Positions 717 through 40,136 of a stretch of 64,000 nucleotides of DNA are shown in pieces. The position numbers and the translations under genes were made by a program. Origin of the DNA: Wickerhamiella versatilis. Lineage: Eukaryota. The notes under the pieces were generated by a model, which had not been told where the DNA came from, ran no database searches, and saw nothing but the letters and a program-made list of their open reading frames with translations. The stretch spans positions 2,232,001 through 2,296,000 of the forward strand of contig JAQOWU010000008.1 of NCBI GenBank assembly GCA_030867685.1. Direction: 5' to 3'. Every line of letters starts with the position of its first letter. The first letter of the stretch is position 1.

Positions 717-1296
717 TCTGGAGATGCTTACAAACTGATGTACTGAACTTGAATGTAAGGTCTGGCGACGCTGGATAAATTGAAGATTCTACCCATGTAG
801 GCATTGTTTTATTGATTCTCCTTCAATTATAGTGACTTCACTGTTACATGTTAGTCGTTGATGCCACGAAATGGCAAATTAGAGAACCCTTTGTGCATAC
901 TAGGTAGTTTAATCGTAGTGCTGAGATATTTATATTCTCATTCCTTACTATAGCTTTTAAATTCAAGCTTTGACCTATAGTTAATTATTATATGGCTACC
1001 AATTCACATTTCACTTTCTTGATAATTATGTTATCTATTTTTGTGGTGCAACATTATACATTTCATCTTGGAATTAGAAATTTAAAAGAAGATCGAAACA
1101 AGGCTGTATAAATTTATTCAATAAGAGCTCGCAGTGAAAAACTAGCTATTGCCAACTAAAACATGATTTCCATAAGTTGCATCTAGACATAGTCGATTAA
1201 ACGTATGTTCAGTATGTACATGAATATATTAATGTAAACGCTCAGAACACAATGATTGTGAAGTATTGGAGACCTCTACTTTTTTTTTGACACTGA

Positions 1297-1773
1297 TCAA
1301 CTCGTCGAGCGATCCTCTGAATTGACAATTTCAGCATCATCGTGGAAAGCGATAACATTCGCAGCCCACGGGTTGTCACTACTTTCCACCAGTCTCAACC
1401 GGTCAAGACGACGCTGGCGCAACTGATTCTTCGGTAGCATTCCGGACACAGCTCTTTTTAAAATTTCGCCGCCACCTTTCCGGGATTTAAGGTCAGCGAG
1501 AGTGATTTCATGGAGATTTCCTGGCTTTCCACTATGCGACCTGTATAGCTTATATTGGTCCTTTTTTCCGGTAGTGTAAATGTATTGACAGTTGGTTACC
1601 ACGACATAGTCACCACAGTCGCTGCCATCATAGTAAACTGGCTTATGCTTTCCCTGTAAAACGGTTGCAATAGATGTAGCAAGGCGTCCTAGTGGACGTG
1701 GATCACGTGCTACATCCACATGATGCCAAGTCCTTGCAAATCCCAGAGCAGATTTGCCAATATACTTCGACAT
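1297..1773 (-). CDS. MRPL23: Mitochondrial ribosomal protein uL13m
   Basis: L13 motifs [35 protein letters not shown]. Confidence 0.95.
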
Positions 1774-2035
1774 GTATTTCTTTCCTTCTGAGGACTGGAT
1801 GAATAATCAACAATCCAAGAGGTTAAGATGGTTATTTCGCGTGAGAGTCGCTGCGTTATTTTACATACTTAAGACCCTACCAGATGTGCTGTAAAAATTA
1901 TAACTTTGTCATATATTTTGATAGAAAGCTACTAATTTAAATCAATTTGCACTTACAGCAAATAGCCCTACCCAAACCCTTTGTGTAACTACACTGCGCC
2001 GCAGCTACGAGTCGCGAGAGAAATATACTGGTGAA

Positions 2036-4315
2036 ATGAGAGGGGGAGTGCCATTAGGCCTTTTATTTCTGATATCATTAATTTTATCTCTCAAATTTGC
2101 ATATAATGAGCCTAACACGTGCTCGATGTCTTGGAGTAGACCGGTGTACCACCCGATAACGGTTGTAGCTCCCAAGGCTAAAAAGGCGCAGAAGTATGGA
2201 ATCTTCCTATATAGAGAGGGAGGAGCGTCGAGAAAATTTGTAGAGCCCTCATCACTGGGTGGAACCCCCATTTTATTTCTTCCCGGTAACGCGGGCTCAT
2301 ACAATCAGGGCCGAAGCTTTGCAGCTCGCTCTGCAGTTGTCACCAAAGAGACGGATAGCAGCTTGGAGTTTGATTGGTTTCTTGCCGACTTTGATGAGGA
2401 TTTGAGTGCAATGCACGGACGAACTCTGCTAGATGAAGCTGAATATGTAAATGAGGCAATTCAACATATTTTGAGCCTCTATTCTGACTTTGAAACACCA
2501 CCCACATCAGTAATACTTGTATGTCACTCTATGGGGGGTATAGTTGCTCGCTTATTGCCCACCCTGTCTGGATACAAGCCAGGAAGTATTAATACCATTA
2601 TAACGCTGTCCACTCCTCATGCAATCCCACCTTTAACATGGGATAGGGATATTACTGGTATCTATGATATCATAAACCAGCATTGGAGAATCCAACCTGA
2701 AAAAGATATTTCGCTGGTGTCGATTGCAGGTGGTCATGCTGATCTCATGGTTGTTCCTGACTATACAAGTGTAGAATCCATTAGGACTGGATCCAATGCT
2801 CTAACTGCCTTTTCATATTCCATTCCGGGTGTATGGAAGGGAATTGATCACCTTGCAGTGGTTTGGTGTGCAGAATTAAGAGATGCGGTTACCGATTGTC
2901 TGTTTAGCATGGCAGACCCTTCTTCTGCCTCGCGAACACTCCCACTGGAAGAACGTATGGAAAAGTTTTCTAGAAGGCTGCAAACCCCCCTCGATAATAT
3001 TCTTAAAGATGGTGATACTATTATTTTCAATAGTGAATCCCCCCGAAGCTTCTCCTCACCCGTCGGAGAAATGTCGCTTGAAGCATCGAACTACAGTACA
3101 GCTGAAAATGAGGAGAAAGTGGACATAACACGTTTACAGGTGACGGGATGGCCATCATGGAAGCTAAGAATGACATCACGATTCGTTGATATTGCATTAC
3201 AAGATATTAATAGCAGCCTTATCGCTCTCCGACTTAATGGCCAGGGTGTTGAAGCTTTCCGTCATGTGTTCCCAGGAACGGGAGATTCCCGCTGGTATAA
3301 TGGTGATAGTGCATCAGTCGTATGGTATTCTCGTGGCCCTTATGTCCCATATGACCCCTCTTACCCAGAACATTTGCACATACAAGCAATAGGCAAGCCA
3401 GATGCGTTGATAGAAATTTCCATTGATTGGATTTCCACGCTGGCAAATATTGCAACACGTTACCGCACCCTTGTCGCAGTCTGGCCTCTTGCTATTACCC
3501 TAGTATGTCTTGCGATGCAATTGGGTACAAAGCCTGTATCATTTAAAGTGTGCTTTTCAGCTTTTATGTCTCTATATTTTTGGTATATGGTCATTGGACT
3601 GACCATTTTGCATTTACTTCTGGGTATTCCGTTGGTTCGTGACTCTGTGAGAGCGCTTCAGTTTCCATCGGAAAAAACAAACATGATGTCCCTGAAACAT
3701 GTAGGATTTGACATCAATGAGCTACTTCTTGGCACTAGCTTACTTGGTACTGCCATAGTTCCCTTTTTTCTCCTCTCAGTCGCCACTTCGGCTGTATTTT
3801 TATTGGATAAGGTTGCTGCAGTGATTGTCTACTTCAACCGCTTCCACAATTTTCATCTTCCCAAGAGGATACCGCTTTGGTTCTGGTGTGTGTTGCTAAC
3901 CGGTCTACTTTTTGTGCCATTTCAAGTTACTACCGTAGCATTTGCCTTATTGCAGCTATTGGCTACAAGAGGTACTCAAGGATGGCATTACACATTTAGC
4001 TTGGTTCTCTGCTGGATAGCGATTATTGATGCGCCAATATTACTGGTGTGGATGAGAAATTTAACGTGGAAATGGGCATGGGCCTTTGCAACAGTACGAA
4101 ATGTCATAGCTGCCGCGCCAATTGTGATTTTTGTTTGGATCAAACCAGATAAAATACCATTGAGATATATGCGCTTCACCAAATTAATCTTGGCATATAC
4201 AGTAATTTACTCATTGCTCTATGGATTTATGCATACGTTTGTGCTGCACCATCTCATCTCCTACTTCTGCGGATGGGTACTGGTTTTACTGCTTGAAAAA
4301 AAAACTAGAGAATAA
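2036..4315 (+). CDS. BST1: GPI inositol-deacylase (PGAP1 family)
   Basis: CSMSWSRP, PILFLPGNAGSYNQGRS, xHSMGG nucleophile, IDHLAVVWC, multi-TM C-terminus. Confidence 0.93.
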   Translation: MRGGVPLGLLFLISLILSLKFAYNEPNTCSMSWSRPVYHPITVVAPKAKKAQKYGIFLYREGGASRKFVEPSSLGGTPILFLPGNAGSYNQGRSFAARSAVVTKETDSSLEFDWFLADFDEDLSAMHGRTLLDEAEYVNEAIQHILSLYSDFETPPTSVILVCHSMGGIVARLLPTLSGYKPGSINTIITLSTPHAIPPLTWDRDITGIYDIINQHWRIQPEKDISLVSIAGGHADLMVVPDYTSVESIRTGSNALTAFSYSIPGVWKGIDHLAVVWCAELRDAVTDCLFSMADPSSASRTLPLEERMEKFSRRLQTPLDNILKDGDTIIFNSESPRSFSSPVGEMSLEASNYSTAENEEKVDITRLQVTGWPSWKLRMTSRFVDIALQDINSSLIALRLNGQGVEAFRHVFPGTGDSRWYNGDSASVVWYSRGPYVPYDPSYPEHLHIQAIGKPDALIEISIDWISTLANIATRYRTLVAVWPLAITLVCLAMQLGTKPVSFKVCFSAFMSLYFWYMVIGLTILHLLLGIPLVRDSVRALQFPSEKTNMMSLKHVGFDINELLLGTSLLGTAIVPFFLLSVATSAVFLLDKVAAVIVYFNRFHNFHLPKRIPLWFWCVLLTGLLFVPFQVTTVAFALLQLLATRGTQGWHYTFSLVLCWIAIIDAPILLVWMRNLTWKWAWAFATVRNVIAAAPIVIFVWIKPDKIPLRYMRFTKLILAYTVIYSLLYGFMHTFVLHHLISYFCGWVLVLLLEKKTRE

Positions 4316-4360
4316 TAAGTATGTTTGCAGAGCAACATAAAAAATAAATCTAAATCCACT

Positions 4361-7300
4361 CTATTCAACTCCAGGTTCTACGTTGTCCCACCAGTCTGTA
4401 CCATTAATTGTGGCACTGATGATACCCTTTCGGATTACAAAATCTCCAAAAGGCTCACCATCAGTCCTCTCTAAAGCCCACTGCTTAAACATTGGCTTCA
4501 ATGTCTTTAATATCTCATCTTCTTTAAGCGAGGATCGGTAAAGTTTGTTGAGTCGTTGACCGACATGTCCACCTCCCAGCATAAGGTTATATGCTCCATA
4601 GGCTTTGCCGATAAGGGCGACCTCCCCAAGCCATCCTCGAGAACATCCATTCGGACAGCCACCCATTCTCATCACAATCGAATCATGTCTCAATCCATAT
4701 TCCTCAAGTGCAGACTCTAGCTTGGTTATCAATTCCGGTAAGTATCTTTCTGACTCTGCCATAGCGAGGCCACATGTGGGGAATGCTACACATGATGCCG
4801 ATGCCAGACGTAATCCCGAGAAGGCCAGGTTGTCCAATTGGTACTTTGACATTAGCTCTGATACTTGCGGCTTGAAACTATCTGGTATGTTAGAAAGAAT
4901 CACATGCTGATTCGCGGTGAGTCGGAATTCACCGAACTTATTTTTCTCAAAATACTGAGCAATCTCACGCAATCCAGTTCTTTGCTGTAACTCAGGAGTA
5001 TCCTCTACTCGACCGTTTTCGATGAAACAAGTGAAATGGTTATTTCCTTCCTCATCACGGATCCACCCGTAAGGATCAACGTTAGTCTTGAAAGGAACGT
5101 GTTCACGTGCAGGCTCAAGTTCATAACCCAAATATTCCTGGAGCTTAGCCTTGAAGCCATCGACTGTCAAATCATCAACAACGTACTTCAAACGTGCGTG
5201 TTTACGGTTCTTACGGTCACCGAAATCACGGTGGATCATCATGACCTTTTCAGCGAAATCTACAGCCTTGGACACTGGAACAAATCCCATCAGCGAACCC
5301 ACCCGTGGGTAAGTCTTACGATTATTATGAGTAGTGCCCATACCACCTCCCACAAGTGCATTGTATCCTTCCACTTCATTCTTCTCGTTCACAATGGCAA
5401 TAAAACCGATATCATGTCCATAGACATCTGCATCATTATAGGGGGGTACAGATATATTGATTTTGAATTTGCGAGGTAAGTATGTAGGTCCATATAATGG
5501 TTCTTTGTCTTCGATCGTAGATTGACCCACCAAAGTGCGGTCTTTCTTCTGGTACGCAGTGTTTTGCGACTCCCATGCTTTAAACTGACCATTATCTGCC
5601 GGATCAGTCGCATCATCACCTTCTAGCCAAATTTCATAGTAGGAAGTAGACCTCCAGATCAAGTTATCACTTAACGACTTCGCTGTGTTGAAAATTTGGC
5701 GATGGACAGCGGCATTGTGGGTTGATGACGAGGTAACGACACCACGAATATTATCTCCACAGGCTGCGACCGTATCGAGCAGTTCAGAATTGAGACCACG
5801 GATTGCTGGCTTCAGATTCTCCTTGATTATTCCATGAAGTTGGAAAGTACCACGGGTTGAAATCTTGAACGTCTCGTTACCACGTGTGGAGGAAAGCTCA
5901 TCAACTTTAAGCCACTGGCGTGGCGAAGCAACCGATCCGGGAAGCCGCAAGCGAGCCATAAAGATATATGCAGGTTCCAAGCCTTCTGCCTTTCTAACGT
6001 CTCGCACATCTCTATCATCCTGCATGTAAATGCCATGAAACTTGGTCAATTGCTGGTCATCAGCACTGACTGCTCCAGTAGATTCATCCTGAAGACCTTC
6101 AGCAATCGTACCACGCAAATAATTGGAAGCCAACTTTATATCTTCATTGGTCTTGGGGGGAGGCTCGTCCGCGACTGCTACATTGGCAACACCAAGAGCT
6201 TCCCAGACCTTTGGCTCCCATTCATTGTAACCAGTGGCCCAGCCATCAGCGCCCTGGTCATCACCTTGGCCGAGGGGCACCAGTTCCTCAGCACCCAACA
6301 ATTTTAGTTTTGCAGAGAGATCGTTAGAGGGCTTATTGTAATAGTGCTTGTCTTGCTTCCTAGGCCAATACTGAGAGTCACCCATTCCAAACACTCCCAC
6401 TTTCACCGAGCTCAAATCAAGATCTGTTGCGTTCTTCAGCTGGTCCCATAGAGCACGGCCATTTTGCGGGAATTCTCCCTGGCCTGCAGTTGATGTCACA
6501 AAAATCACATGCTGCTCATTAGTTAGGGCCTCAACTTCTTCTATATCATCGAAAGCACATACAGTAGACTTCAAACCACGCTGCTTTGCTCTTCTGGCAA
6601 GACGACGTGCAACATTCTCTGCCTGTCCACCATCTGATGCGAATAAAACAAGAACAGGGGGTCCACTCAAGCCTTCTAGAAGTTGTGCGTAGGCAGACTT
6701 TGCCTTCTGAAGCTGAGATTTAACGTTCGTGCGATTCTCATCAAGTTCCAGATCCCTGGCAACCCGTGGCTTCTGTGAGGCTAACAAAGAAAGCTTGTTG
6801 CGACGTTCAAGGTACATCTCCAGGTTCTTTCTAATAGTATAACTATCCAGAATGAACTCGTCGTTAGTTGGCCTGTAACGGTAAAGCGGCCAGTAACCTG
6901 TTTCAACGGCTCTCTTCGTCTCCTTCAAAGAATCGAGGGCATCTGAGCCCCTAGGCAAGTAGGCAAGAACTATCGCAGGCCCATCGAATGCTTGGGCTTC
7001 AAGCAAAGCTTGTAGAACCTGCGTATATGAAGAGTAAATGGCCACAGACGCTACATAGACGGGTTCAGTGAAACCCAGAGCGTAAAGTCCAATGTCCTTC
7101 TTCCGCTGACGGGTACTGCGTATTTCAGATTCAGGGCTTGAGTCAATAACCAGCATTTTGACATTCTTGCCTGATGTCAAGACATGATGCGCACCAGAGT
7201 TTCCGAGATCGTAGGCCCAAGCATCGCTTCCTACAATCCAGTTTTCATGGTTCACATACTGCGAAAGTCCCGCATCATTGAGTTTCTTGTTGAGTTCGCC

Positions 7301-8503: not shown

Positions 8504-8583
8504 TCCTCTGCTGAAATTTTCAAAAACGAACTATTTATTGTTCAATTAGACACCCGGAATTCGGTGTTGGGACCAGATCTGAA

Positions 8584-8752
8584 ATCACGTGTGATTACGC
8601 AACTGGCGTTGTTCTATGATATCGTGATAATGAGTCAATTCAGGTATATTATGCTATTTGGCTACACATAGGCGTGTATATACATTTTAGTTTTTAGTCC
8701 ACGGAAAGTGGATATCCATCTTTTTTGATTGGTTAGATCGTTCACACGTGAT
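8584..8752. promoter_or_regulatory. MET5 upstream region: two Cbf1-type TCACGTG sites, a Gcn4-type ATGAGTCA and a CCAAT box
   Basis: ATCACGTGTGA at 8584-8594 and its exact reverse complement at 8742-8752; ATGAGTCA 8630-8637; TGATTGG 8726-8732. Confidence 0.7.
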
Positions 8753-9286
8753 CTGTCTTGTGATTCATATGACTAAACATATATTAATTTTACTTAATGT
8801 TACTGGCCGTGGAGTCTCTCCCCGTATTATGCTTTGGATCCCTCCCCTTCCTGGCTCATAAGTGCTAATATTTAATATATAATCGATTTTCCCACTTCTC
8901 TGCAGTATTTGCTAGAGGCTATGCAATGACAAAGTAGTTGTATTAACGTGTTAAAAAATTTTAGGATGTATACTGTGGGCTAAAGGCATGCGCCTAGCTC
9001 AGTCGCTCGCTAGGCGCTTGGTACATAGCCTATTAATCTGGACTAACTGATAGAGGCATCTGCAGTAGGAGTCACACATATGCCTACAATAAGCAGTCGT
9101 GAGAACATGTAAATTACTAATATTGAATGTTGGGATTGGTTTAAATGGTCTACGACTAATTGCGGAATTTTCGTCGATTTGTATTGCTAGCTGGAAATCG
9201 ATCGGGGGTATAGGCAATCTTGATGATCACCAGTACCCATATCTCTTCTGAACCCGATATTTTTTTTTCTTTCTATCTTTTTTTTT

Positions 9287-9467: not shown

Positions 9468-9506
9468 AGAATCAAGTAATCTGATTGATTACCCACCCAC
9501 ACACCG

Positions 9507-12844: not shown

Positions 12845-12880
12845 GCCTGCAGGCCAAACTTACATAAAGCAGTCTTTTAG

Positions 12881-15559: not shown

Positions 15560-15623
15560 TGAGATTTTAACCATATTACATCTTTCTTTGTCCACTTTCG
15601 ATATTAGTAGTAAGCCCTGCCAG

Positions 15624-16808: not shown

Positions 16809-16849
16809 GCTAATGGCATAAATTCGGTAAGCAACATGTACTTTCCTCT

Positions 16850-20989: not shown

Positions 20990-21236
20990 CCTGTGGAGAG
21001 AAGAGGGATTTCTGCTTACGTTGCTCCAATCACCTTCTTTCTAAGCTCGGTCAGAAGAATCTGAAACCCTAAACCCACCAAACGGTGATACGACCATCAT
21101 TTGGACCCTCCGCGTAATCCAGTGTTTTTGCGAAATGCCAATTGTTTTTGAAAAAGTAATATATATCCACTATAGCACTGCTTAGCTCTCTACATGGCGC
21201 ACATAACAAGACTATGTATATCTATATTTTATAACG

Positions 21237-22306: not shown

Positions 22307-23032
22307 TTAGTTCTGTGCCTTGATGAGAGCGTTGATGTTATCCTCACGGTTGCCGAAGGAACCGCCAATAATGAAGTGCTTGAACTTCCGGCGGACACCC
22401 CAGCCACCAGAGGGACTCGACAGGTGGAAAGGCCACAAGAAGTTGTTGGCCTGCTTGAAGTTAGGACCGACAGTGTAGATCTCGTGGATAAGATCTTCAA
22501 TGCAGATGATTCCGTACTTGCCCAGTGACTCTTCAATGATGGCATTGTCAGACAGAGCGACACGCTGCTTGTCGATCTTACCGAAGCCACGCTTGTAGAT
22601 AAGCTGTCTAACAGAGCTCAAGTTGGGGTAACCAAAAGCAACATAAGGCTCGACGATACGGAGGAGCTCAGCAGTAGCCTTGTTGATGCGGACGAAAACG
22701 CCAGCATTGATCTTGGTCAAACGAAGGAGCTGCAAAACCTTGCGAGGCTTGGGGGCAAGCTTGTTCACACCCTTGATACGGATAACGAAAGCAAGCTTCT
22801 CCTCACCAGGGACGTAGACCTCACCGTTAGCGCGAGCATCACGCTGGAGGCGGATCTGCTCACGCTCGGCATCACGGTACTCCTTGACGTACTTTTCAGC
22901 ACGCTGGAAGATAGCCTTGCGCTTCTCCTTGTTTGCGGCACGGCGAGCCACTGCCTCAGCGGCCTTCTGTTCCTTAACCTTCTCGGCGTTCTTGCGAGCC
23001 TTAAGGACAGTCTCGGGCACAACGTCACTCAT
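22307..23032 (-). CDS. RPL7: 60S ribosomal protein uL30 (L7), intronless CDS; ATG at 23032
   Basis: [40 protein letters not shown]; strong codon bias. Confidence 0.97.
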
Positions 23033-23095
23033 GCTGTTGCGTCTGGACAAGTTACCGGCGTCACAAAGAGTGAGATGGAGGTGAGAACAGGGTTG

Positions 23096-26383: not shown

Positions 26384-27307
26384 TCAGATATCATTGAGGG
26401 CCACCGAAATAACACCTTTTTGGTGGCCACGATATTGGCGAACGATCTGTCCATTTAAAAGGTCCCAAAGTCGAACATAATGGTCACTACAAGCAGTTAC
26501 AAGATATGCACTATCAGCTGTGAAAGCACAATCCCAAACCCATCTTTGATGACCGCGTAGGACGTTTTCCATTCTAAAATCTTGGTCTACAGACCAAACA
26601 CGTGTCGTGTGATCCGCAGAGCATGTGGCAAGATGTTTCACATCTGGACTTAGAAGCACTCGTGTAATATATTTAGAATGCGACCTGAATCTCGTAACAG
26701 GGTGCAGGCTAGTAATATCACGGGAATTGACCATTCTCCACACGTAACAATTACCATTGTTGTTTCCAGCCACTATCATGGTGCCATTGCTTGCGACAGA
26801 GACTGATCGTACCGGCACGTACTCCTCTGGTACAAGGTGATGCGTGCATATATTTTCACCAAGGTCCCAAACCCGGACGTTGCCATCTTGATCACACGAA
26901 ATGACCTCACCTTGATTTGGATGTATTACAACGTCATTTACGGGTGATTTGTGTCTATAGTTACGCTGAACAGACGGTGTTCGCATATCCCATACCTTCA
27001 CTGTCCCATCTTCTGAAGAGGTCACCATCCACTTTCCATCAGCCTGAATCGCCAATGCCGTTACATTTGCCTTATGTCCCTCAAAAGTTACAACCGGATT
27101 TGGATTATTGGACTTAATATCATATAACCGCACCGTTTGTGAGCCTGCACATGCAAGATATTTCTTGTCCTGAGTGATGATCATCCGGTTAACTTGCCCA
27201 TCCCCATGTTGTATGGTACGACTGCATACTCCACTTAAAGCTTCCCAGAACTTAACTGTCTGGTCGTAGCCGCTGGAGGCGAGCACCACAGATAGATCTT
27301 CAGACAT
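26384..27307 (-). CDS. LST8: TOR complex subunit Lst8 (WD40)
   Basis: VVLASSGYDQTVKFWEALSGVCSRTIQH, GHQRWVWDCAF. Confidence 0.97.
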   Translation of the reverse strand: MSEDLSVVLASSGYDQTVKFWEALSGVCSRTIQHGDGQVNRMIITQDKKYLACAGSQTVRLYDIKSNNPNPVVTFEGHKANVTALAIQADGKWMVTSSEDGTVKVWDMRTPSVQRNYRHKSPVNDVVIHPNQGEVISCDQDGNVRVWDLGENICTHHLVPEEYVPVRSVSVASNGTMIVAGNNNGNCYVWRMVNSRDITSLHPVTRFRSHSKYITRVLLSPDVKHLATCSADHTTRVWSVDQDFRMENVLRGHQRWVWDCAFTADSAYLVTACSDHYVRLWDLLNGQIVRQYRGHQKGVISVALNDI

Positions 27308-27766
27308 TAGCTCCTTAGTAAGAGCACTATTCTTCGAGCATGAACCGCTGGGATTTGGGCATTTAACTGATTTCGAATATTAGTAGAAATAAAAAGTAAA
27401 TCACCGCATCTAAAGAAATACCTTTTGTTTGGACGAGATTGAAAATTAGGAAAATTTCGAACCAAGAAATGCTTTCATTTCTCTAATCGAGCCAGTTAGA
27501 AGGTATCTAGGTATAAAGTAAGAAATAATCGAGTTATAATCTTTCTTTACATAGTAGTGGGCCCCGGACAAATCTCAAAGTTTTACCGTAGCAACCCATG
27601 ACTTCGAGATGTGTATGACCGTACCTAGAATACGAGGTCATCTATGTCATGAAATGGTATTACAGAATATAGCCAGATTGTTTTATTTGCCTAAATCTAT
27701 CATTGATGTAACAATAATATCTATAAGCATGAAATGGTATCCTCCAGAAAATTCGGTCGGAAGTTT

Positions 27767-29050: not shown

Positions 29051-30466
29051 CTACTCCTTACGCGACTTCTTCTTCTTCTTGGATCCGTCCTCGTCTTCTT
29101 CGTCGTCATCAGCCTTTCGCTTCTTTTCCTTTTTCTCCTTCTTTTCTTTCTTTTCCTTCTTTTCCTTCTTCTCCTTCTTTTCCTTCTTCTCTTTCTTTTC
29201 CTCATCCACATCCATAGTGTCTTCCTTGGGCGGCTCAGCAGACTTAGCCTCAGGGAAACTTGGGGCCGCCTTAGGGACGGCTGGTTCAGGTTGTGAACTT
29301 CCACTCAGATCAACGTACTTCTTCTTCCATTCATCTGGGGTGCTTTCATTGGTATGACCATACTTATCAAGCTGGCCGGCGGCCTTTAACTGCTTCTTAC
29401 GCTGGGCCACAGGACCAAGTCCCCAACGCCTGGGGTAGGTATCACGCTCCATGATGCACCGCTTGATTCGGGATACAACTCCATGGTCACACGTTGCCAA
29501 ATCAACGCTAGACATTTGAGCAATACCGAGAGCAATTGCCTCGCCCTTTGTGGTCATAAGAACACATTCGTCACCCACCTCAATTCCTTGTTCATAGCGC
29601 AGCAACCCGGGAATCATAAGTTTTGCACCATAGCAGACAGAGTTCACTGCCGAATCCTTAACTACAACCCTCTTGTACCCTACCAGAAGGGACTCAAGAG
29701 GCCGGATGCAGCGACGGAGGTAGGACTCATCACGGGAGTTGTCGTATACCCACTGCGCATCGAGCAAGTCATGAAGGGTTACCATATCATCCGACTCACT
29801 CATGGCACCGCTACGAACACGGCGTAATTCCTGCATATGTCCTCCCACTCCTAATAGCATACCTAGATGAACGCAGAGTGTTCGCATGTAGGTGCCAGCT
29901 TCGCAAGATGACCAGAAAACGGCAAGATGACGGTCATTATCAAACTCCAGGAGCTTTGAATCGTAAATAGTCCTGATACGCAATTGTCTTTTAACAGCAC
30001 TAATCAACGGAGGACGCTGGAAAAGCGCACCAGTAAGCGTCTCAATAGTACGGCCCAAGTCCTTCTCATCCTTAAGCAAATCATGTAGCCGGAGCACACA
30101 AACATACTCTTTACCAGCGCCTTGCTGGCTCTTTACTAGACGGGTTGCTCTATCAATGCAAACGATCAAGCATCCAGTGACCTTAGGGTCAAGTGTCCCC
30201 GAGTGGCCTGTCTTTTCAACACGGAGAATGCGCTTGATCCAAGCTACAACCTCGTGGCTACTAGGATTTGCGGGTTTGTCCAGGTTAATCACACCAGAAG
30301 AAATATAAGATCCCAAGTCCCGGTTCAAGGGGTTCGACCCAGAAGGGATAGGTGTATAGTGACCACTGCGAGCAACCAACTTATCATAGTTTTTCACCAA
30401 AAGTGGCCATTCAGAAGTATCTACAGGAGCCACAGAAGCTTCTGGTTTGATCGTATGATCGGCCAT
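29051..30466 (-). CDS. CBF5: H/ACA snoRNP pseudouridine synthase (dyskerin)
   Basis: [35 protein letters not shown]-repeat tail; RRPE-like GAAAAATTTT just upstream (30470-30479). Confidence 0.98.
29122..29202 (-). repeat. Coding (KKE)n repeat of Cbf5
   Basis: Degenerate 9-bp repeats encoding EKKEKKEKK... Confidence 0.9.
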
Positions 30467-30621
30467 GGAGAAAAATTTTGCTTACAAACTCACACTTACT
30501 CGGCTGTTGAGCATAATCCGTGGTGGAAATTAAGTCGTTAATTTATTATTGATTTTCGTTTATAGCTTCTAGATTAGATCTGAGTGAGTATTAGAATATC
30601 AATCTTTGCTGTTTTGGAGAT

Positions 30622-32432: not shown

Positions 32433-32466
32433 TAAGAGTGCTGGGGACGTGTGACGTAATAGTTAG

Positions 32467-33162
32467 ATGCAACGAGCAGCAGCACCAGGATTCTCGGAAA
32501 CTTGGGAGAAAATCCCTTATATTTCACGAAACCTGGGTGGTTTAGTGATTATGTTGTATTCAATGATGCTGGTGGCGCCATATTTCGCAGTAAAGTTTTG
32601 GTACTTACCGGGAACGACGTATCAATTTTGGCGTCTATTTACAAGCCCTTTTGCATGGCAGGGTAGGTTTGGTCTTCCGGGGCTTCTCACAGTCTTCTAC
32701 TTCTGCTTCAATGTGAACTTACTCGAGACACAAGTGTTTGCAGGACGACCAGCCGATTTGGTTACTTACGTGTCATTTGTTGGTATTTTCTTTCTGCTTA
32801 TAGGACAATATCTGAATATGTATGCATACCTGGGCGGGCTAGTAAGTGCCATGACTTATACCGTGGCCCAAGAAGCCCCCTATGAAGTCACGACATTAAT
32901 TGTGATTCAAATTCAAAGAGGATGGATCCCCTGGGCAAATGTTCTGCTGGGATTTGTTACGGGTGGAATACCTGGCACCTATGAGCCTATTCTAGGTATA
33001 GTAGTTGCTCATGCGTATCTATTTCTCTCTGAATTATTGCCTAATGCGGGTGGTCCCAAAGTTATCAAGACTCCTGGGTTTTTGACACGATTTTTCCTCA
33101 AACAGAAGCAGGAAAAAGGAGCGCGCATGCACTTTGGCCGCGGGCAGCGACTTGGAAAGTAG
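32467..33162 (+). CDS. DFM1: Derlin with C-terminal SHP box (Dfm1-like)
   Basis: QFWRLFTS WR motif, WIPW, GIVVAHAYLFL, SHP box HFGRGQRLG. Confidence 0.78.
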   Translation: MQRAAAPGFSETWEKIPYISRNLGGLVIMLYSMMLVAPYFAVKFWYLPGTTYQFWRLFTSPFAWQGRFGLPGLLTVFYFCFNVNLLETQVFAGRPADLVTYVSFVGIFFLLIGQYLNMYAYLGGLVSAMTYTVAQEAPYEVTTLIVIQIQRGWIPWANVLLGFVTGGIPGTYEPILGIVVAHAYLFLSELLPNAGGPKVIKTPGFLTRFFLKQKQEKGARMHFGRGQRLGK

Positions 33163-33225
33163 GCGTCATCTACGTAGCATTTTTGGAAACCCGTGTTGGC
33201 GCCTTAGTACATACATGAGCTGCAG

Positions 33226-33265
33226 ATATATATATATATGTATATATATATTTATATATATTTAT
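33226..33265. repeat. Imperfect (TA)n microsatellite
   Basis: atatatatatatatgtatatatatatttatatatattta, between the convergent DFM1 and VMA9 genes. Confidence 0.85.
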
Positions 33266-33434
33266 GTGTGTGAAATATTTTTTGACAAGAATAGATTGGA
33301 AAAATGCCTTCAATTATTGGTGTAAAGTGGGCCTGGCCCAGAGCCTAAGCCCCAGGATTCCACGCGGGAAGACAGCAGAAACATCTCCGAAGATATTAGA
33401 GAGATAAGGTAACGTAGGATGTATGATAACTCTA

Positions 33435-33653
33435 TTAGTCGGCATATTCAGGCCTGAGATCGCTCCTTACTGGAGCAACTAGCGGATGGAGCTGACACAA
33501 GTATGTTATCGCCCAGAAGATGTACATGAGGGCTAGAGAGAGAATAACACTAGACCTCCAGACATTTTGATCCTGCTTAGGCGCATAGCGCCAGAAGGCA
33601 GCGCTTGCTGCGGCCACGATGGCGAGCAAAATAATGACCGTCCAGCCGCTCAT
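33435..33653 (-). CDS. VMA9: V-ATPase V0 subunit e, intronless
   Basis: APK....WRSSVIL..MYIFWAITYLCQLHPLVAP.RSDLRPE. Confidence 0.95.
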   Translation of the reverse strand: MSGWTVIILLAIVAAASAAFWRYAPKQDQNVWRSSVILSLALMYIFWAITYLCQLHPLVAPVRSDLRPEYAD

Positions 33654-33793
33654 GATTACTCAGCAGAGAGTGCTCTTGCTTATCTCACCCGGCAGTAAAG
33701 TAGTAGCTCACAAATTCATGTTAGGTGAGAAAAAAAGGACACTTCACATCTATTCATATTATGTTAAATACAAAGTACTTCTATTGACTTAAA

Positions 33794-35506
33794 TTATTTC
33801 ACTTCTTGAAGTTTTTCTTCCTCGTCAACTTGATAACTGCTGCCTTCAGGAACTTCTCCTACCCAAGACATATCATATCCATTTGCAGCCAAATACTCAC
33901 GGAACTCAATATCTTCCTTTGCAACTGCATCTTGAGAGAGTTCTGGAATTAGAAGCGCCAAAAATGCACTGAACAAGCATAGGGCGGAAGAGATGTAGAA
34001 TAGTGGTATTTGACCCTTATCAGAATCGATACCATTGACTGGATCAAAGTCTTCGGCAATAGCTGGAAACACTTTAGTTCCGACGAAGGCACCAATCTTT
34101 CCCATAGCTGCAGCAATTCCATAATAGCGCCCCCGCACAGCAGAGGAGGATGACTTGGAGCAGATGAGTCCAATATTATCACCTGCGCCAAATTCACCCA
34201 GGGAAGTAAAAACACCGTAGGCTACTATGAAGCCTCCAATATTTTTCTTCATATTTTTGTAAACTGCTGCCATTATAAATCCAACAATTCCCTCCAAGAC
34301 ATTTCCTATGAAAAGGGTAAGGCGGGGACCTAGATAGTCTGAGGCAATTCCCCCTAAAAAGGTGCCTGGGAGGTAGAATGCCATTAGGAGAATTTCCCAG
34401 CCGTATGTCTTGTGAATATTTGAAATTGACATGTTCTCACCATCTGATCCCTTATAATCAACTGTTTTGACGTCAGTAACCACTGAGTTCAAAATAGTGG
34501 AGGACCAGTTTCCGAAACTATAAGTGCAGAAATCGTAAATGAACCATATTAATGACACGATAACAAGACGGGGTCCATAACGCTTGATGATGAGCCAGTA
34601 AGGAGTCTTACCTCCCTTGAACTTATTTTGAGTATAAGCATCCGACTCCTTGAATTTAAGACGTAGGAAGAAAAGCGAAATCGGAGGAATTGCACCCAAT
34701 CCCAAGAGAAGGCGCCATGTTGCCTCTAGGCCATCTGAATGGCTTGGGTAGGGATATGAACTTACAGAGCAAATGTAGAGAAGGATGAAGAGTACTAGCG
34801 CCGAGACTACATAGCCCACATCGATCATAGAGTTTGTGAACCATATAAACCAACGGTTACGCTTGCCCGGTGGGAGCATCTGGCACACCTCAGCACAGGC
34901 AACAGATCCACTTGGATATTCCGATCCAAGAAATACCCCAACAAAAGCACGCATGGTTATAAGCATGTTGAACATATTCAGAGGATTTTCTTTCATGCCT
35001 GGGCCCCATGAGCCAGCACACAAAATAGAAAATAAAATCAGCCCAACACAAGAAATCATCATACCCATTTTGCGGCCAAATTTGTCTACGAAGAAGCCAA
35101 ATCCTAACATTCCCACTACCTGCCCAACGAACGCAATGGCGGCAATGTTGGCTATTGCAGCAGACTTGCCCACATATTCTGGTTTGTACATGTCTGAGAA
35201 AAGAGTCGTAAGAAAACCTACACTGTTGTTAATATAACCATCACTGAAGAGACCTGCTCCTGCTGCAACAACAGACCAGCGGCTATTTTTCCGTTGACTA
35301 GGATCAGACCAGGCGTTTTCTTCGTCGAATGAGCCATTGGAGCCTGACTTCTGGGCAACAGAAACGGTGGTAGCCTCTTTAGGCTCATCATGGTCACTGG
35401 ACTTTGGATAGCGGTCCTCAGTAAGGATCTCCTCACCCCCCAACCAATGGGGGATTGCGGTCTCACGCTTCAACATGCTAAAATAGCTCCTAACAGGATT
35501 CCCCAT
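33794..35506 (-). CDS. GIT1: MFS glycerophosphodiester permease (Git1-like)
   Basis: AGAGLFSDGYINN, DKFGRK, GSEYPSGSV, WFIYDF, GEFGAGDN, RGRYYGIAAAMGKIGAFVG. Confidence 0.85.
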   Translation of the reverse strand: MGNPVRSYFSMLKRETAIPHWLGGEEILTEDRYPKSSDHDEPKEATTVSVAQKSGSNGSFDEENAWSDPSQRKNSRWSVVAAGAGLFSDGYINNSVGFLTTLFSDMYKPEYVGKSAAIANIAAIAFVGQVVGMLGFGFFVDKFGRKMGMMISCVGLILFSILCAGSWGPGMKENPLNMFNMLITMRAFVGVFLGSEYPSGSVACAEVCQMLPPGKRNRWFIWFTNSMIDVGYVVSALVLFILLYICSVSSYPYPSHSDGLEATWRLLLGLGAIPPISLFFLRLKFKESDAYTQNKFKGGKTPYWLIIKRYGPRLVIVSLIWFIYDFCTYSFGNWSSTILNSVVTDVKTVDYKGSDGENMSISNIHKTYGWEILLMAFYLPGTFLGGIASDYLGPRLTLFIGNVLEGIVGFIMAAVYKNMKKNIGGFIVAYGVFTSLGEFGAGDNIGLICSKSSSSAVRGRYYGIAAAMGKIGAFVGTKVFPAIAEDFDPVNGIDSDKGQIPLFYISSALCLFSAFLALLIPELSQDAVAKEDIEFREYLAANGYDMSWVGEVPEGSSYQVDEEEKLQEVK

Positions 35507-35599
35507 CTTCCCTTATCGCTATTCTCGTTGATGCTGTAATACGCAAATGGGTAGTATCTTATTAGCGATATATAGCAAACCATTCGGGGCTAGGTTTTA

Positions 35600-36072
35600 C
35601 ACGTGATAAGAGTTTTATGACTACTGGCAGTGATCTAGGAGATACGCGATCAAGTGCAGACCACGTGCGCAGTGGTTCCAATAGTTAGGATCAAATGAAT
35701 ATTTTTTTCTTTTTCAAATGTGTTTGCAAAGTAATTATTCCAGCGATAAAGGGTAGGTAGCCAAATCACAGGGAAATGGTTTATCATACTCGATATTGCT
35801 TATACATACTATAGCTCACCCATCTGAAACATATGTCCCACTGGTAGTAGTATGACTTCGCAGCCAAGATTATAACGTCATATATTGATAATAGCATGAT
35901 AATGCATAATGTTCTAGTAATACTAATGTCTAATAGACATTTTTACGGTACCACCAAGTATGAACCTGCAAATAAGTAAAAAAAACTCGATTAAAATAGA
36001 TTACACTCGGAAAAACATACTTTTCAAGCCGCGAAAATATTTGGAATGTGAACATGAGTAAACTAGCACGTG
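35600..36072. promoter_or_regulatory. Three CACGTG E-boxes (Pho4-type) upstream of GIT1
   Basis: CACGTG at 35600-35605, 35662-35667 and 36067-36072; S. cerevisiae GIT1 is a Pho4 target. Confidence 0.6.
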
Positions 36073-36134
36073 CTCGTTTTTTTTTCGAATAATGCATGCA
36101 GCCAAATTAGCATAGGCCTCGTGACAGAAAATCT

Positions 36135-36572
36135 TCAACTCTCAGTTTCTTCTAATATTGTAGGAACATGAGTTCTAAATGTTTGTGATTTAGAGTGATG
36201 GTTTATTGGTTGGTCGTCGATCATAGTTTCATCCATGGATTGTAAATATCGTGGGTGAGCATGGGTAGTACGATGAGGCCCATTTTGCAACGCCTTGGTT
36301 TGAGACTTTTGATCCTGCCTTATTGGTAAGACATCAAGCCAAATTGCTGCGATGCCCACCAGGCCTCCAGTTGCCAATCCTATACTACCACCTATTACTG
36401 CAAGGACAGCGACCGGCCAAATGATGGACTCGACAACATAGCGAGAAAGTGACAGAGGGACACGCACCATCGTGACGAAAATTGACATACAAAAGCTAAT
36501 AGATTGAAGCAAGACAAGAATAACAGTATACCATGCTACGAGGAGCACCTTGAACAAAAATGCTATGCCCAT
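36135..36572 (-). CDS. Hypothetical membrane protein (first ATG 36572)
   Basis: Long hydrophobic N-terminal half with GGSIGLATGGLVG, polar tail ending TILEETES. Confidence 0.55.
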   Translation of the reverse strand: MGIAFLFKVLLVAWYTVILVLLQSISFCMSIFVTMVRVPLSLSRYVVESIIWPVAVLAVIGGSIGLATGGLVGIAAIWLDVLPIRQDQKSQTKALQNGPHRTTHAHPRYLQSMDETMIDDQPINHHSKSQTFRTHVPTILEETES

Positions 36573-36945
36573 TGGCGTAATAAAGTAGTAGCACCTTGCA
36601 GATAGGCCTAGCCGACCTTTAAAGAGATACAATTGCCTCCCGGAAGTATAGCTGGAAAGTGTCGTTGTATGACTAATTAATAGTCGTAGTGGCTGGTACT
36701 AAACGAAGTAAGGCCAGCTGTGTTAATTCGCGTGTTTTCGAACTGTGTTAGGCTAATTTTAAATTCATTCACAATAAATACCTTATGTTTTAGAGTTCTA
36801 CACCAGTGGGATATCTTGCATTTCACTAGCTGAGACTGGTTGCAGCCGAAGCCAGTTAACGAACAAAATGTGACAATGACTCGTACAAATAAAAAAAAAC
36901 AAGGATAATAATTGCCTAGGGGTTACAGCTAACCACACGCTAAAA

Positions 36946-37623
36946 CTACCTACCCCATGAGGAAGGTAACAACCAGGCAATATAACGAGCCCATCTTGGT
37001 TCAATCATTACGATATTACCATGAGCAAGTGGAGTTTTGGTATCTACAGCGGCTTCCATGTCACCATAGTCATCCACTAGATATATCTCACCACTAGCTC
37101 CTGCTTTTCTGACGTTCCCAGATGAAACATCCGGGTCAGGTTTTGCCCGCAAACTGATCAATGAGCATACAGGTATGGGATTCACATGATCCACCTCTAA
37201 CTTGCCAGTGACACCGATTTTCCGAGGCAGCTGGGGAAAAGCAGCAGCTGCCAAACACTCATCAAACATAGTCGCGACAATTCCTGGGTGCAATGCCTCA
37301 GATTTACTGGCCAGACTAGTTCCAATGAGATACAATGTTTCTTGACGTCCTTGAGGCCCGCAGAATCTAACAGGATCACATTCAAATTTTCCGGGACCAC
37401 TCAAAATGCTTTTAACCACCATGTGGTTCCGGTGGAAAAATGGCGCGGGATGGCTTCTTTGTATTTTGTACCCCTCGTCTTGTAGGTGGGCAACATAAGG
37501 GTGACGTAAAATAATGTCCAGATTTTCAGGCTTTACTGGAGGAGGCTGTGCTACTGACCATCCGATATAGCCACAAGCACTCAGCAACCCCCACCTGGCC
37601 AAGCGCGCCCAACCACCTGACAT
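36946..37623 (-). CDS. HotDog-fold thioesterase, probably mitochondrial (Fmp10/Mrx3-like)
   Basis: LSGPGK, LHPGIVATMFDECLA, PRKIGVTGKLEVD, IEPRWARY. Confidence 0.8.
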   Translation of the reverse strand: MSGGWARLARWGLLSACGYIGWSVAQPPPVKPENLDIILRHPYVAHLQDEGYKIQRSHPAPFFHRNHMVVKSILSGPGKFECDPVRFCGPQGRQETLYLIGTSLASKSEALHPGIVATMFDECLAAAAFPQLPRKIGVTGKLEVDHVNPIPVCSLISLRAKPDPDVSSGNVRKAGASGEIYLVDDYGDMEAAVDTKTPLAHGNIVMIEPRWARYIAWLLPSSWGR

Positions 37624-37644
37624 AACCTGTTAGGTGGCGTGGTC

Positions 37645-38823
37645 ATGAGTGTGACAGTGAACTATGGATACAAAAGACTAAAGATCAAGTTGGGGCCTTC
37701 TTCCTCACTTGGAGAAGCGCGTGACAAGGCTTGTGGCATGATTGGCCAAGATGCTCTGTCGTTTGGCTTGTGTAGAAGCGGAAAGCAGCTTGATCTTACT
37801 GTACCCTTTCGACTATCTAATTTGGTATCAAACGCCTCTGTAGATCTTGTACCCATCCAAAAGCCCACCAAGCCAGTACGCATAAAGCTCAGAATTCCTG
37901 GAAAACCAGACTTTATCAGTGCATTTGCTCCTGAGACGTCGATTGCTCAAATACTACTGACAGCTGGCCTGCCAACTGGTAATGTGAGATTAGGAACACA
38001 ATCATTATCGCCAGATGATACCCTTCTGCATGCGGGTGTGACAGGAGCGGTAGTGTTGGTAGCAGATACAGGCCATAGTTCTATCCCATCAGCGGCCACT
38101 TCGAGTCAGCGTGATATTCCTCAATCGCAGACTGGCAAGAAAGAACTTCTAGATACAAAAGAAGAACCAAATCCACCAAAAAAAGAGGATATGAAGAAGA
38201 CACAGGAGCATACCCCAGAGCCGAGCCAACCATATGAATCAGAAGCCCATAAGGATAGAAATGTGGCCATAATTTCAAAGCCACATAACGAGATATCTTC
38301 TGCGGAAGCTCCAGCAGAGATGACAAGAGAGCAGTTCATGACCTACTATGAATATCTTCATGCACAGGCAACGAATCAAAAGCCAAAAAAGAGGCAGATA
38401 ACGAAGACTACTGTGCGTGTCAAATTGCCTGATGGTATCTGTATAGATGCAACTTTTAAGAAGGAGGCATGTGGCCGTGATGTTTACGAAACAGTCCGCG
38501 AACATCTACGCCAGTCTCAGGACTTATTTGAACTCATCCCTCGGGGTAGGGGTGATGTCTTGCAACCGGAACAAAATTTAATTGATGATTGTAGGTATGG
38601 TGATCGCATTTTATTGATTTTCCGGTGGTTAGATCGTCAACATGATACTAGCGAACCTATGCTTTCGGATAAAGCATTACAGAGGCTTGGCGAAATAAGA
38701 CATCCTGAACCTTTGGAGCAAGGCACTACCGCTCCGCCGAAGGAGCAACCCCCCACACCTCACACAAGGACCCCAGGAAATTCTTCCACATCAATACCTA
38801 AGTGGCTAAAACTGCATAAGTAG
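37645..38823 (+). CDS. UBX4: UBX-domain Cdc48 adaptor (ASPL/TUG type)
   Basis: LDLTVPFRLSNL, VRVKLPDG..IDATF, C-terminal IPKWLKL. Confidence 0.85.
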   Translation: MSVTVNYGYKRLKIKLGPSSSLGEARDKACGMIGQDALSFGLCRSGKQLDLTVPFRLSNLVSNASVDLVPIQKPTKPVRIKLRIPGKPDFISAFAPETSIAQILLTAGLPTGNVRLGTQSLSPDDTLLHAGVTGAVVLVADTGHSSIPSAATSSQRDIPQSQTGKKELLDTKEEPNPPKKEDMKKTQEHTPEPSQPYESEAHKDRNVAIISKPHNEISSAEAPAEMTREQFMTYYEYLHAQATNQKPKKRQITKTTVRVKLPDGICIDATFKKEACGRDVYETVREHLRQSQDLFELIPRGRGDVLQPEQNLIDDCRYGDRILLIFRWLDRQHDTSEPMLSDKALQRLGEIRHPEPLEQGTTAPPKEQPPTPHTRTPGNSSTSIPKWLKLHK

Positions 38824-38883
38824 TACGCCTATATAGAGTGCATTTTGAAATCCTAACAAAAAATAAAAGCTAGTTGAAAGAGT

Positions 38884-40110
38884 CTACGGAACAGCTTCTT
38901 CAATCTGCTTTAACACGGTTTTAGCGCGTTCCCATTCTTCCAGGACATTAGCAGGTTGAGGTGGTGGAAGTTTTAGTCTCTTTGTAGGGATTCCACCAGC
39001 GAACTCCACCAGTCCCTCAAGCAGGCGGGGGTGTATTGATAGATTCTTCCCTTTTACGAATTCATGAAAGAGCATTTCAAGTTTTGACCATTCTTTTTCG
39101 CGAATTAATGTTTCTGCCGCATTTGTCAAAAGGCTGTAGGATCTTACTCTTTTCATTGTTAGAGAAAATAGCCATTCGGGTCTATAATGAATTCGCCAAA
39201 GGGCCGCCAAGACGTGCTCGGGGATATCTGGATGTGAACCTAAGCATGTAATATCCAATTTGCTGAGAAGTTCAGGATCTACATTTGCAATCGAAGCTAG
39301 TCCTTCAGGGGAGTACTTAGTAGAGACATCACAGTCCTCCATTAATTTCCTGAGTTCACTTGGATTACAGCGACGAGCTATTGAGGCAAACCACCCTGGT
39401 CTACATGATGGCAATATAGACAGCAGAATACAGGCTTCCCTGACATTCAAATTTCGGAACAAGTCTGCGAAAGGGAGCTCAACGCCCTTCTCTCGCAAAC
39501 AGGTACATAGGTTAAGAGCTCGTCGGTGATCTGTGGGGTTCAACAAAAATGCTTGCCATATTGCGTAGACGTCTATATCATCGAGAATTTCGGGGCATTG
39601 CTCGACAATAGCTTGATTCAGGCATGCAATGAGTTTACTAGTATGAGGATCTAGCCTGCGGCGATACTTAAATGTTCTTCGCAGACTAGTTGCCAGATTA
39701 GGAGATATAAACTTGGACCAGCGCTCAAACTCTTTTTTATTCTCGTGATTTGCATAATATCTAGCAAACAATGACGATACTGTAGTAATATCCTCACTGG
39801 TTAGATTTTCGACTATTAGTTCTGCCTTATGAGGTTGGAACGCTTTCAAATAGTACTCCACCCCTTTGAGTGGAGATTTTCCTGGAATATTTTTCCAAAC
39901 TTCAATTGCCGCATAGGGATTTTTCTTGGCAAGTAAATCAGCATACTTTTGCGATCCCGATATTCCAAGAGCCCATGGCAACCCTGACTCATATGCTAGA
40001 GTTCCAGCCTTTTCCAGTTTACCATCAGCTAAAAAATCATTCACTTTACGGCTCACCCTCTGAGGATTTCCGGCACGAGGCCGTCTCACAAAACGAATAA
40101 ACCTCTTCAC
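38884..40110 (-). CDS. Hypothetical helical protein with Arg-rich presequence-like N-terminus; no ATG at the 5' end (GTG)
   Basis: 408-codon ORF fills the gap between UBX4 and VMA5; first in-frame ATG is ~250 codons in. Confidence 0.6.
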   Translation of the reverse strand: MKRFIRFVRRPRAGNPQRVSRKVNDFLADGKLEKAGTLAYESGLPWALGISGSQKYADLLAKKNPYAAIEVWKNIPGKSPLKGVEYYLKAFQPHKAELIVENLTSEDITTVSSLFARYYANHENKKEFERWSKFISPNLATSLRRTFKYRRRLDPHTSKLIACLNQAIVEQCPEILDDIDVYAIWQAFLLNPTDHRRALNLCTCLREKGVELPFADLFRNLNVREACILLSILPSCRPGWFASIARRCNPSELRKLMEDCDVSTKYSPEGLASIANVDPELLSKLDITCLGSHPDIPEHVLAALWRIHYRPEWLFSLTMKRVRSYSLLTNAAETLIREKEWSKLEMLFHEFVKGKNLSIHPRLLEGLVEFAGGIPTKRLKLPPPQPANVLEEWERAKTVLKQIEEAVP

Positions 40111-40136
40111 CTGGTTGCTCTTACGTAATAGTTAGC

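Follow-up and report, generated by a model that had tools for sequence, protein, structure and literature searches.

The short GT...YAG units that abut a number of start codons in the window, the whole 64-kb stretch of Wickerhamiella versatilis DNA analysed here, are probably halves of a start-proximal, orientation-independent element of the Yap/AP-1 (bZIP) type rather than introns, and the AG that closes each unit is then probably coincidental. The initial annotation had left three readings side by side: ultra-short 5′-UTR introns, collapsed intron relics, or a promoter motif with a YAG start context behind it. The last of these is supported, because the motif occurs in both orientations, dyad-symmetric full sites are found and there is no link to a YAG outside the window. 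The GTAA(G/T)C that heads the units would be one half of a dyad-symmetric bZIP site of the forms TTA(C/G)TAA, TTACGTAA, TGACTAA or TTACAAA; the likeness of GTAAG to a splice donor would be only superficial, and the YAG ahead of the ATG would be ordinary start-codon context that by chance is clustered in the window.

On re-reading, the letters and coordinates of all nine units (the six named ones and the 7- and 11-nt cases) were confirmed, the 7-nt case at the arrestin gene and the 11-nt cases at DFM1 and VMA5 being present as claimed, and the gene names RPN10, SNU66, RNase III, COX4, RPL7, VMA5, DFM1 and arrestin agree with Pfam. One detail needs correction, in that the RPL7 unit opens with GTAACT instead of GTAAG. 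The units have the GT...YAG ends of a U2-type intron, and the remaining features of such an intron are largely missing from them. The consensus donor of this genome, GTAAGT, which pairs with ACUUAC of U1, is present in only 1 of the 6 named units, and a YTRAY branch site, with which U2 could pair, is present in 0 of 9, as had been stated for the branch point. Furthermore, their lengths of 7-29 nt fall outside the range of the supported introns of this organism (41-50 nt).

When published Yap response elements (YREs) were laid over the GTAA of the nine units, three matched exactly, three with one mismatch and three more poorly. The GTAA of the 14-nt RPN10 unit (718..731, minus strand) comes from TTTGTAA (728..734, minus), which on the opposite strand reads exactly TTACAAA, a published Yap element; this unit has a single internal adenosine, at position 7, and is not judged to be an intron. 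The third 14-nt unit (40111..40124, minus) takes its GTAA from the minus-strand half of the TTACGTAA palindrome, an exact YRE-A, at 40121..40128, where a spacer of 26 nt separates VMA5 from a gene with a GTG start. The VMA5 11-nt unit comes from the same palindrome, so that the two units, as its opposite strands, are not independent. The 14-nt SNU66 unit (15610..15623, plus) is overlapped by a YRE-O-like site with one mismatch (15604..15615, plus) that ends in a GTAAGC half-site, and the 17-nt unit of the RNase III-domain gene (12847..12863, minus) by TTATGTAA at 12860..12867, one mismatch from YRE-A, in a 36-nt spacer common to two divergent start codons. Past position 4, neither of these last two units has an adenosine before its closing YAG, and hence neither has one on which to branch. 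The DFM1 11-nt unit lies in TGACGTAA (32452..32466, plus), a CRE/YRE-A-like sequence in a 34-nt divergent spacer. The COX4 and arrestin units are two mismatches away from any YRE; the arrestin unit (59191-59185) lies beside an exact YRE-O (59199-59205), the pair spanning 59185..59205 on the minus strand. The RPL7 22-nt unit (23034..23055, minus) has three mismatches, and a YRE does not explain it.

The same motif is also found in the window before start codons where there is no acceptor to pair with it. A GTAAGC at 16827..16832 (plus) is followed by an ATG 23 nt downstream with a YAG-free interval, and two GTAAG copies (30482..30499, minus) precede the ATG at 30466 by 33 and 19 nt, the closer one within TTTGTAA, again with no YAG before the ATG. 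At two further genes the GTAAG is antisense to the gene, as part of a TTAGTAA (YRE-O; 27315..27321) directly ahead of a minus-strand gene whose start is at 27307 and of another upstream of the plus-strand gene at 45909 (45884..45890).

Enrichment near starts was measured with gene starts called mechanically as the first ATG of ORFs of at least 150 aa. Directly upstream of the ATG of 143 genes GTAAG is the most enriched 5-mer (17 against 3.9 expected), and it is likewise enriched in the 102 genes outside the window (13 against 2.7). Start-proximal enrichment was also seen for its reverse complement and for GTAAT/ATTAC, and the top four strand-collapsed 5-mers near starts were GCTTA, ATTAC, CTTAC and CGTAA; CTTAC alone, outside the window, was not enriched (8 against 6.1 expected). 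A splice donor should be strand-specific, and GTAAG near starts is not, with 20 sense and 14 antisense copies (p 0.39).

The published words, taken together with the residues that define the Yap family from the available part of PMC6545440, are YRE-O (TTACTAA), YRE-A (TTACGTAA), TGACTAA and T(T/G)ACAAA, the family in S. cerevisiae being Yap1-Yap7. Of the 143 genes, 32 carry such a YRE at -45 to -6 relative to the ATG, against 6.1 expected, as do 21 of the 102 outside the window. Their density is 4.74/kb near starts, compared to 0.74/kb in intergenic DNA away from starts and 0.25/kb in coding DNA; near and away from starts it is 5.98 and 0.86 in the window and 4.40 and 0.70 in the C8 flanks, while in 30 kb of other contigs it is 3.84 and 0.56 (p 0.044, resting on 3 versus 2 hits). 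The sites are concentrated 6-45 nt before the ATG, with a peak at 16-30 nt and in either orientation, often in divergent-gene spacers of 21-59 nt. Such dyad symmetry and independence of orientation are typical of a Yap/AP-1 element, and a motif found de novo by EM was G[AC]T[TG]AC. The extended palindrome GMTTACGTAAK was not enriched genome-wide (10 versus 27 in the reversed control).

Proteins that could recognise such sites are encoded in this genome. There are nine bZIP matches, 7 above the cut-off, and three of the proteins (L119, L121 and L125) carry the Yap basic region N-x-x-A-Q-x-x-F-R. In an Atlas search L119 is named merely as a bZIP protein; a "KapC-like" label for it had no support in the search listing and was dropped. 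We infer from the sequence that a bZIP protein binds these sites, as well as which one it may be and what effect it would have, and that the units go unspliced; a dimer at a start-proximal site would most likely help to open or position the promoter of the adjoining gene or gene pair.

The pairing of GTAAG with a YAG that touches the ATG does not stand above chance as a class. It is seen in 4 of 6 genes in the window and 0 of 12 outside. Within the window the link is nominally significant (p 0.024, or p 0.002 with looser donors, 8/15 versus 2/26), and yet the chance of at least 4 such pairings in some 64-kb window of the genome is around 0.43. Nor, among genes outside the window, is there an excess of YAG within 2 nt of the ATG (7/118), as a spliced-leader acceptor would give. 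The 14-nt length, which had been singled out as special, likewise shows no genome-wide excess: there are 19 exact 14-nt patterns, against a mean per length of 396/19, or about 21, and 25 with the donor reversed. None of the 17 outside the window is at a gene start; about 1.7 patterns at real starts are expected by chance, and both real-start cases are in this single window. Such genome-wide counts against a reversed control (70 versus 108; 24 versus 35; 396 versus 507) are uninformative even for real introns.

Alternatively, the motif may be a core-promoter or initiator element, with initiation on the T-A of GTAA or close to it, or may be bound by a factor that is not a bZIP, its Yap likeness being incidental. 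This is unlikely but is the best of the other readings, since 6-45 nt from the ATG is the expected zone of yeast start sites and, according to the available part of PMC7849388, yeast initiation favours pyrimidine-purine steps. Furthermore, the 21-59-nt divergent spacers leave scant room for other elements, and GTAAGC itself has a slight sense excess (11 versus 6). However, an initiator should be strand-specific, whereas half-sites occur both ways at tandem and distantly divergent genes (antisense at 25/114 and sense at 31/114 genes without a close divergent partner), and full dyad sites are enriched around tenfold (15 versus 1.5).

The introns for which there is frame support are of quite another kind from the units. 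They are 41-50 nt long, with a GTAAGT donor in 9/9 (15 of the 18 candidates had been chosen with GTAAGT) and a CTAAC branch site (RCTAAC); the branch-pairing GTAGTA of U2 is canonical, as is the 5′ end of U1, although the U1 match is below the Rfam cut-off. The claim of ultra-short 5′-UTR introns is not supported: a branch adenosine is missing from two units, the genome shows no class of 14 nt, and the introns with frame support are canonical ones of 41-50 nt.

That the units are relics of lost 5′-UTR introns, from which the middle and the branch site have been deleted, is improbable. The genome donor GTAAGT is near to GTAAGC, the COX4 unit has a pyrimidine run before its CAG, and RPL7 introns of other fungi have been lost here: a metagenome scan (80 loci, 30 inspected; distant relatives only, best 73% identity) found 26 of 80 fungal loci interrupted at residue 33-34, where this genome has no intron. 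Relics would not, however, explain GTAAT or the antisense copies, which are equally common, so that collapse is not supported as a general account; neither is there a reason to keep a dead donor in 18 of 143 genes, the sixth base of sense GTAAG is C in 11/20 and T in only 3/20, and the YAG link is absent outside the window.

Still less probable is that the longer units are real short 5′-UTR introns with a degenerate branch site and the shorter ones are not. The COX4 29-nt unit (20991..21019, minus), whose GTAAGC half-site has two mismatches to YRE-A, is the least easy of all to dismiss; it and the RPL7 unit both contain internal adenosines, microsporidia, ciliates, dicyemids and myxozoans are known to have introns below 30 nt (PMC13644364), and canonical-looking candidates of 28-32 nt occur in this genome. 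Against this, YTRAY is absent from both units in a genome with RCTAAC introns and a canonical U2, of 8 candidates no longer than 32 nt, none proved to join coding sequence in frame (a result that speaks to coding and not UTR introns), and the Yarrowia minimum is 41 nt in the available part of PMC2911113. A 264-kb screen for short GT...YAG units whose removal would connect an upstream ATG with a coding frame produced a noisy set of matches, in which no micro-intron stood out. It is highly improbable that even one of the adenosine-bearing units (RPN10, 14 nt; 40124, 14 nt; RPL7, 22 nt; COX4, 29 nt) undergoes splicing despite having no branch site that can be recognised; if true, this would be a budding-yeast intron no longer than those of Stentor.

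Compositional chance, with TAA depleted in neighbouring coding DNA, is hardly a better account of the motif. In 16 genes of contigs C1, C3 and C7 the half-sites GTAA(G/T)/(A/C)TTAC were not enriched (1 versus 3.4 expected, with GTAAG at 0), a result that also weighs against the Yap reading; TGAC-type sites were enriched there, a wider pattern picked after those genes had been viewed. The start-proximal enrichment nevertheless persists against a non-coding background (p ~1e-12), so that stop-codon depletion is rejected as its cause, and it is specific among NTAAN words, most others showing none. Least credible is splicing of the 14-17-nt units as introns below Stentor size: they have GT...YAG ends, a 5′ position and a nominal clustering in the window, but SNU66 and RNase III offer no branch adenosine and RPN10 only A7, in Stentor introns the branch A has been retained, either at position 10 or at 11 (PMC9505925, available part), and neither the genome-wide counts nor the outside cases point to a 14-nt class. 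Splicing of the units in general appears unlikely.

The gene beside VMA5 is a GTG-opening ORF of 408 codons (38884..40110, minus) that matches no Pfam family and has its first in-frame ATG at 39342. The GTG start at 40110 proposed for it is plausible and agrees with an orthologue of 56% identity that is called from the same position. When the 40124 unit is removed, the sole nearby upstream ATG runs into a stop, a further point against splicing of that unit. Removal of a 22-nt GT...GAG segment, which would bring an upstream ATG in frame, was rejected because its acceptor is not YAG and because the orthologue retains the residues that would be deleted.

Comparison with known systems gives partial likenesses. 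In S. cerevisiae, Yap sites are typically found far upstream of the gene and are a mark of stress regulons. This genome has the same core words, likewise in both orientations, and it also encodes Yap-type bZIP proteins, but the candidate sites here lie 6-45 nt from the ATG of around one fifth of genes, of mixed functions, with many half-sites; a position cited for a S. cerevisiae YRE is -414 (PMC6545440, available part). The general regulatory factors Reb1, Abf1 and Tod6, with sites near yeast core promoters, also place a motif at a fixed distance from many unrelated gene starts, with a different sequence and a protein family other than bZIP, and no bZIP motif is named among near-core-promoter factors in the available part of PMC7849388. 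The 15-16-nt introns of Stentor coeruleus resemble the units in length range and GT...AG ends but, from the same portion of PMC9505925, form a genome-wide class with a fixed branch A, unlike the units, two of which have no usable A. The short introns of Yarrowia lipolytica share with the units a 5′ bias and, with those of this genome, GTAAGT/GTGAGT donors and a branch site near the YAG; the supported introns here fit the Yarrowia peak of 41-60 nt, whereas the units lack a branch site and Yarrowia 5′-UTR introns are mostly over 100 nt (PMC2911113, as available). A search of the accessible literature listed no paper that deals with bZIP sites close to start codons, or with ultra-short introns, in Wickerhamiella/Starmerella.

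Introns of 14 nt would, if true, redefine how small a spliceosomal intron can be; the evidence points the other way, and for sequence scans it carries the caution that a bZIP half-site mimics a splice donor. What is left is more modest, a known class of stress-factor site crowded into the last 45 nt before the start codon of around one fifth of genes, among them divergent pairs separated by only 26-59 nt. It is possible, though doubtful, that in this compact genome a Yap-type bZIP now serves core promoters in general, which would be a likelier novelty than a tiny intron. Should binding be confirmed, the sites would illustrate how promoters are built in a streamlined yeast with almost no intergenic room, and would offer an easy way into designing promoters for this lineage.

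The GT...YAG stretches abutting start codons in the window, in which the initial annotation saw possible micro-introns, were all found as described: 14 nt at RPN10, SNU66 and 40124, 17 nt at the RNase III gene, 22 nt at RPL7 and 29 nt at COX4, together with shorter units at the arrestin gene (7 nt), DFM1 and VMA5 (11 nt each). The RPL7 unit is present but its first bases are GTAACT rather than GTAAG, and the 40124 and VMA5 units are opposite strands of one TTACGTAA palindrome (40121-40128). Statistics were drawn from the window (C8:2232001-2296000), 200 kb of flanking contig C8 and 30 kb of contigs C1, C3 and C7, 294 kb of a 9.88 Mb genome in 8 contigs; a gene start was taken to be the first ATG in any ORF of at least 150 aa that overlaps no other. 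The window genes are dense and almost intron-free; gene density, short introns and a complex I 75-kDa subunit closest to NUAM-type chains among solved proteins mark the genome as that of an intron-poor ascomycete yeast, perhaps of the Wickerhamiella/Starmerella group.

It is clear that GTAAG near the ATG exceeds chance. It is the top enriched 5-mer at -40 to -8 (17 against 3.9 expected, 143 genes), an enrichment kept in the 102 flanking genes (13 against 2.7). With intergenic DNA away from starts as background, the top four strand-collapsed 5-mers near starts are GCTTA, ATTAC, CTTAC and CGTAA. Stop-codon depletion was ruled out as the source, because just 4 of the 16 NTAAN words rise: GTAAG, GTAAT, GTAAC and, weakly, CTAAC. 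GTAAG shows no difference between sense (20) and antisense (14; p 0.39), and among the 114 genes lacking a close divergent partner 31 carry sense and 25 antisense half-sites, GTAA(G/T) or (A/C)TTAC. Of 134 genes 60 have a half-site, full dyad sites exceed expectation (15 against 1.5), and an EM search returned G[AC]T[TG]AC; the motif peaks at -30 to -16 in both orientations.

This start-proximal, orientation-independent word family matches published Yap (bZIP) elements, so that the promoter motif among the options of the initial annotation is the one favoured. Words listed in part of PMC6545440 lie within -45 to -6 of the ATG in 32 of 143 genes (6.1 expected), and their density, 4.74 per kb near starts, falls to 0.74 in the remaining intergenic DNA and to 0.25 in coding sequence. 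Over the GTAA the match is exact in the RPN10, 40124 and VMA5 units and has one mismatch in those of SNU66, RNase III and DFM1; the COX4 and arrestin units have two mismatches, arrestin with an exact site just upstream, and RPL7 three. Candidate Yap-type proteins are encoded: of nine bZIP-encoding matches in the genome seven are over cut-off, and three have a Yap basic region. Two loci (L119 and L121) hold near-identical small Yap-type bZIP paralogues, their open frames 163 and 166 aa long, whose products are candidates for the binding factor. In the sequence tests the motif behaves as a Yap response element and would function alike; such a promoter element probably accounts for the units.

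Several results run against a Yap reading. Among 16 genes from other contigs the half-site occurs once (3.4 expected) and GTAAG is absent near starts. Full AP-1/Yap words are enriched in this sample but belong to the TGAC type: 4 against 0.4 with a pattern widened after these genes had been seen, and 3 against 2 hits with the published set (p 0.044). GMTTACGTAAK lacks genome-wide enrichment (10 against 27), CTTAC by itself shows no excess beyond the window (8 against 6.1), and the COX4 and RPL7 units fit poorly. In this small sample regions seem to favour different types of half-site, TTAC on C8 at 2.13-2.40 Mb and TGAC in the 16 genes of C1, C3 and C7 (L128-L130). It is conceivable, if rather unlikely, that an initiator or another factor explains the motif. 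Reb1, Abf1 and Tod6 motifs lie near yeast core promoters (PMC7849388, in part). Four of the five supplementary files of that paper, image logos excluded, make no mention of YAP, CIN5 or CAD1, though a similar Yarrowia or fission yeast motif could be missed there.

Canonical splicing signals do exist elsewhere in the genome. Eighteen intron candidates were hand-picked from hits to a pattern that included the branch site, and 15 of them were chosen with GTAAGT. Nine, spread over seven genes, have reading-frame support, eight by frame output (with Pfam backing for two genes) and one by hand reading. These nine are 41-50 nt long, with a GTAAGT donor and CTAAC a few bases before the YAG; one 48-nt candidate is not among them. 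U2 has the canonical GTAGTA, and a U1 candidate, its match below the Rfam cut-off, the canonical ACTTAC. The units fail as U2 introns in donor, branch, length and strand: YTRAY occurs in none, as the initial annotation had noted for the branch point, and start-proximal GTAAG is followed at the sixth position by C in 11 of 20 cases and by T in 3. At L105 (265-295, plus strand) a canonical-looking 31-nt intron directly follows ATG-AAG, which would leave an ORF of only 15 codons; it is possibly the shortest real intron of the genome, or part of a non-coding host transcript. A short element, noticed through recurring translations, is present 2-3 times per locus 3' of the candidate introns of L105 and L113 and is common to both; it may represent a family of small RNAs.

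S. cerevisiae COX4 and RPL7 carry introns, and in other fungi the RPL7 intron at residue 33-34 hosts a snoRNA. Related RPL7 loci break at that position in 26 of 80, with AG before the break in 10 of 10 inspected; the RPL7 coding sequence here (22307-23032, minus strand) is intronless. That the units are relics of introns is improbable, and that those of COX4 and RPL7 are real short introns a little more so: removing any of the eight candidates 19-32 nt long did not yield a joined coding frame, in a test blind to UTR introns, and Yarrowia introns measure at least 41 nt (PMC2911113, in part).

Chance is a very unlikely source of the motif. The proposed pairing with a YAG before the ATG does not exceed chance: it is seen in 4 of 6 window genes and 0 of 12 outside (looser donors, 8 of 15 and 1 of 32), and the probability that a 64-kb stretch somewhere in this genome would hold at least four paired genes is about 0.43. 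Nor is a 14-nt micro-intron class supported. The exact pattern occurs 19 times genome-wide, where 396 occurrences spread over 19 lengths average about 21 each and a donor-reversed control gives 25. All 17 cases outside the window were inspected and none has its ATG at a gene start; their longest ORF is 71 codons, and all lie within longer frames. Two cases at real starts compare with about 1.7 expected by chance; both happen to lie in the window, a coincidence that caught the eye in the initial annotation. In the 15-16-nt introns of Stentor the branch A is retained, at position 10 or 11 (PMC9505925 and PMC13644364, in part), whereas no adenosine lies between donor and YAG in the units of SNU66 and RNase III and RPN10 has only A7, so splicing of the 14-17-nt units is the least credible reading.

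Beside VMA5 lies a 408-codon minus-strand ORF (38884-40110) with no Pfam match. The GTG directly after the 40124 unit is probably its start, because the frame is open with no ATG until 39342 and an orthologue (P0150, 56% identical overall but almost identical over the first 23 residues) is called from the same position, although callers write GTG as M and the relative's M does not reveal its codon. The N-terminus is basic and looks like a mitochondrial presequence; the conserved 23-residue stretch overlaps the VMA5 promoter. Divergent starts on both strands lie 21-59 nt apart in five spacers (12845-12880, 32433-32466, 37624-37644, 40111-40136 and 59185-59243), four with a YRE-like site, and the 5' leaders must be very short or overlapping. 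At another locus (L011, 5042-5083) a divergent gene pair is separated by 40 nt, and each gene has its own GTAAG, back to back.

A literature search found no report of such a start-proximal arrangement, and portions of an Entamoeba preprint and PMC10581693 hold nothing on this lineage; this silence is weak evidence of novelty. Under the Yap account the units would be unspliced, kept in the 5' leader or placed upstream of it, with a bZIP dimer binding on or very close to the site of transcription initiation, where it may help to define promoters as tightly spaced as these. What is left of the micro-intron claim is modest novelty on a known promoter element.
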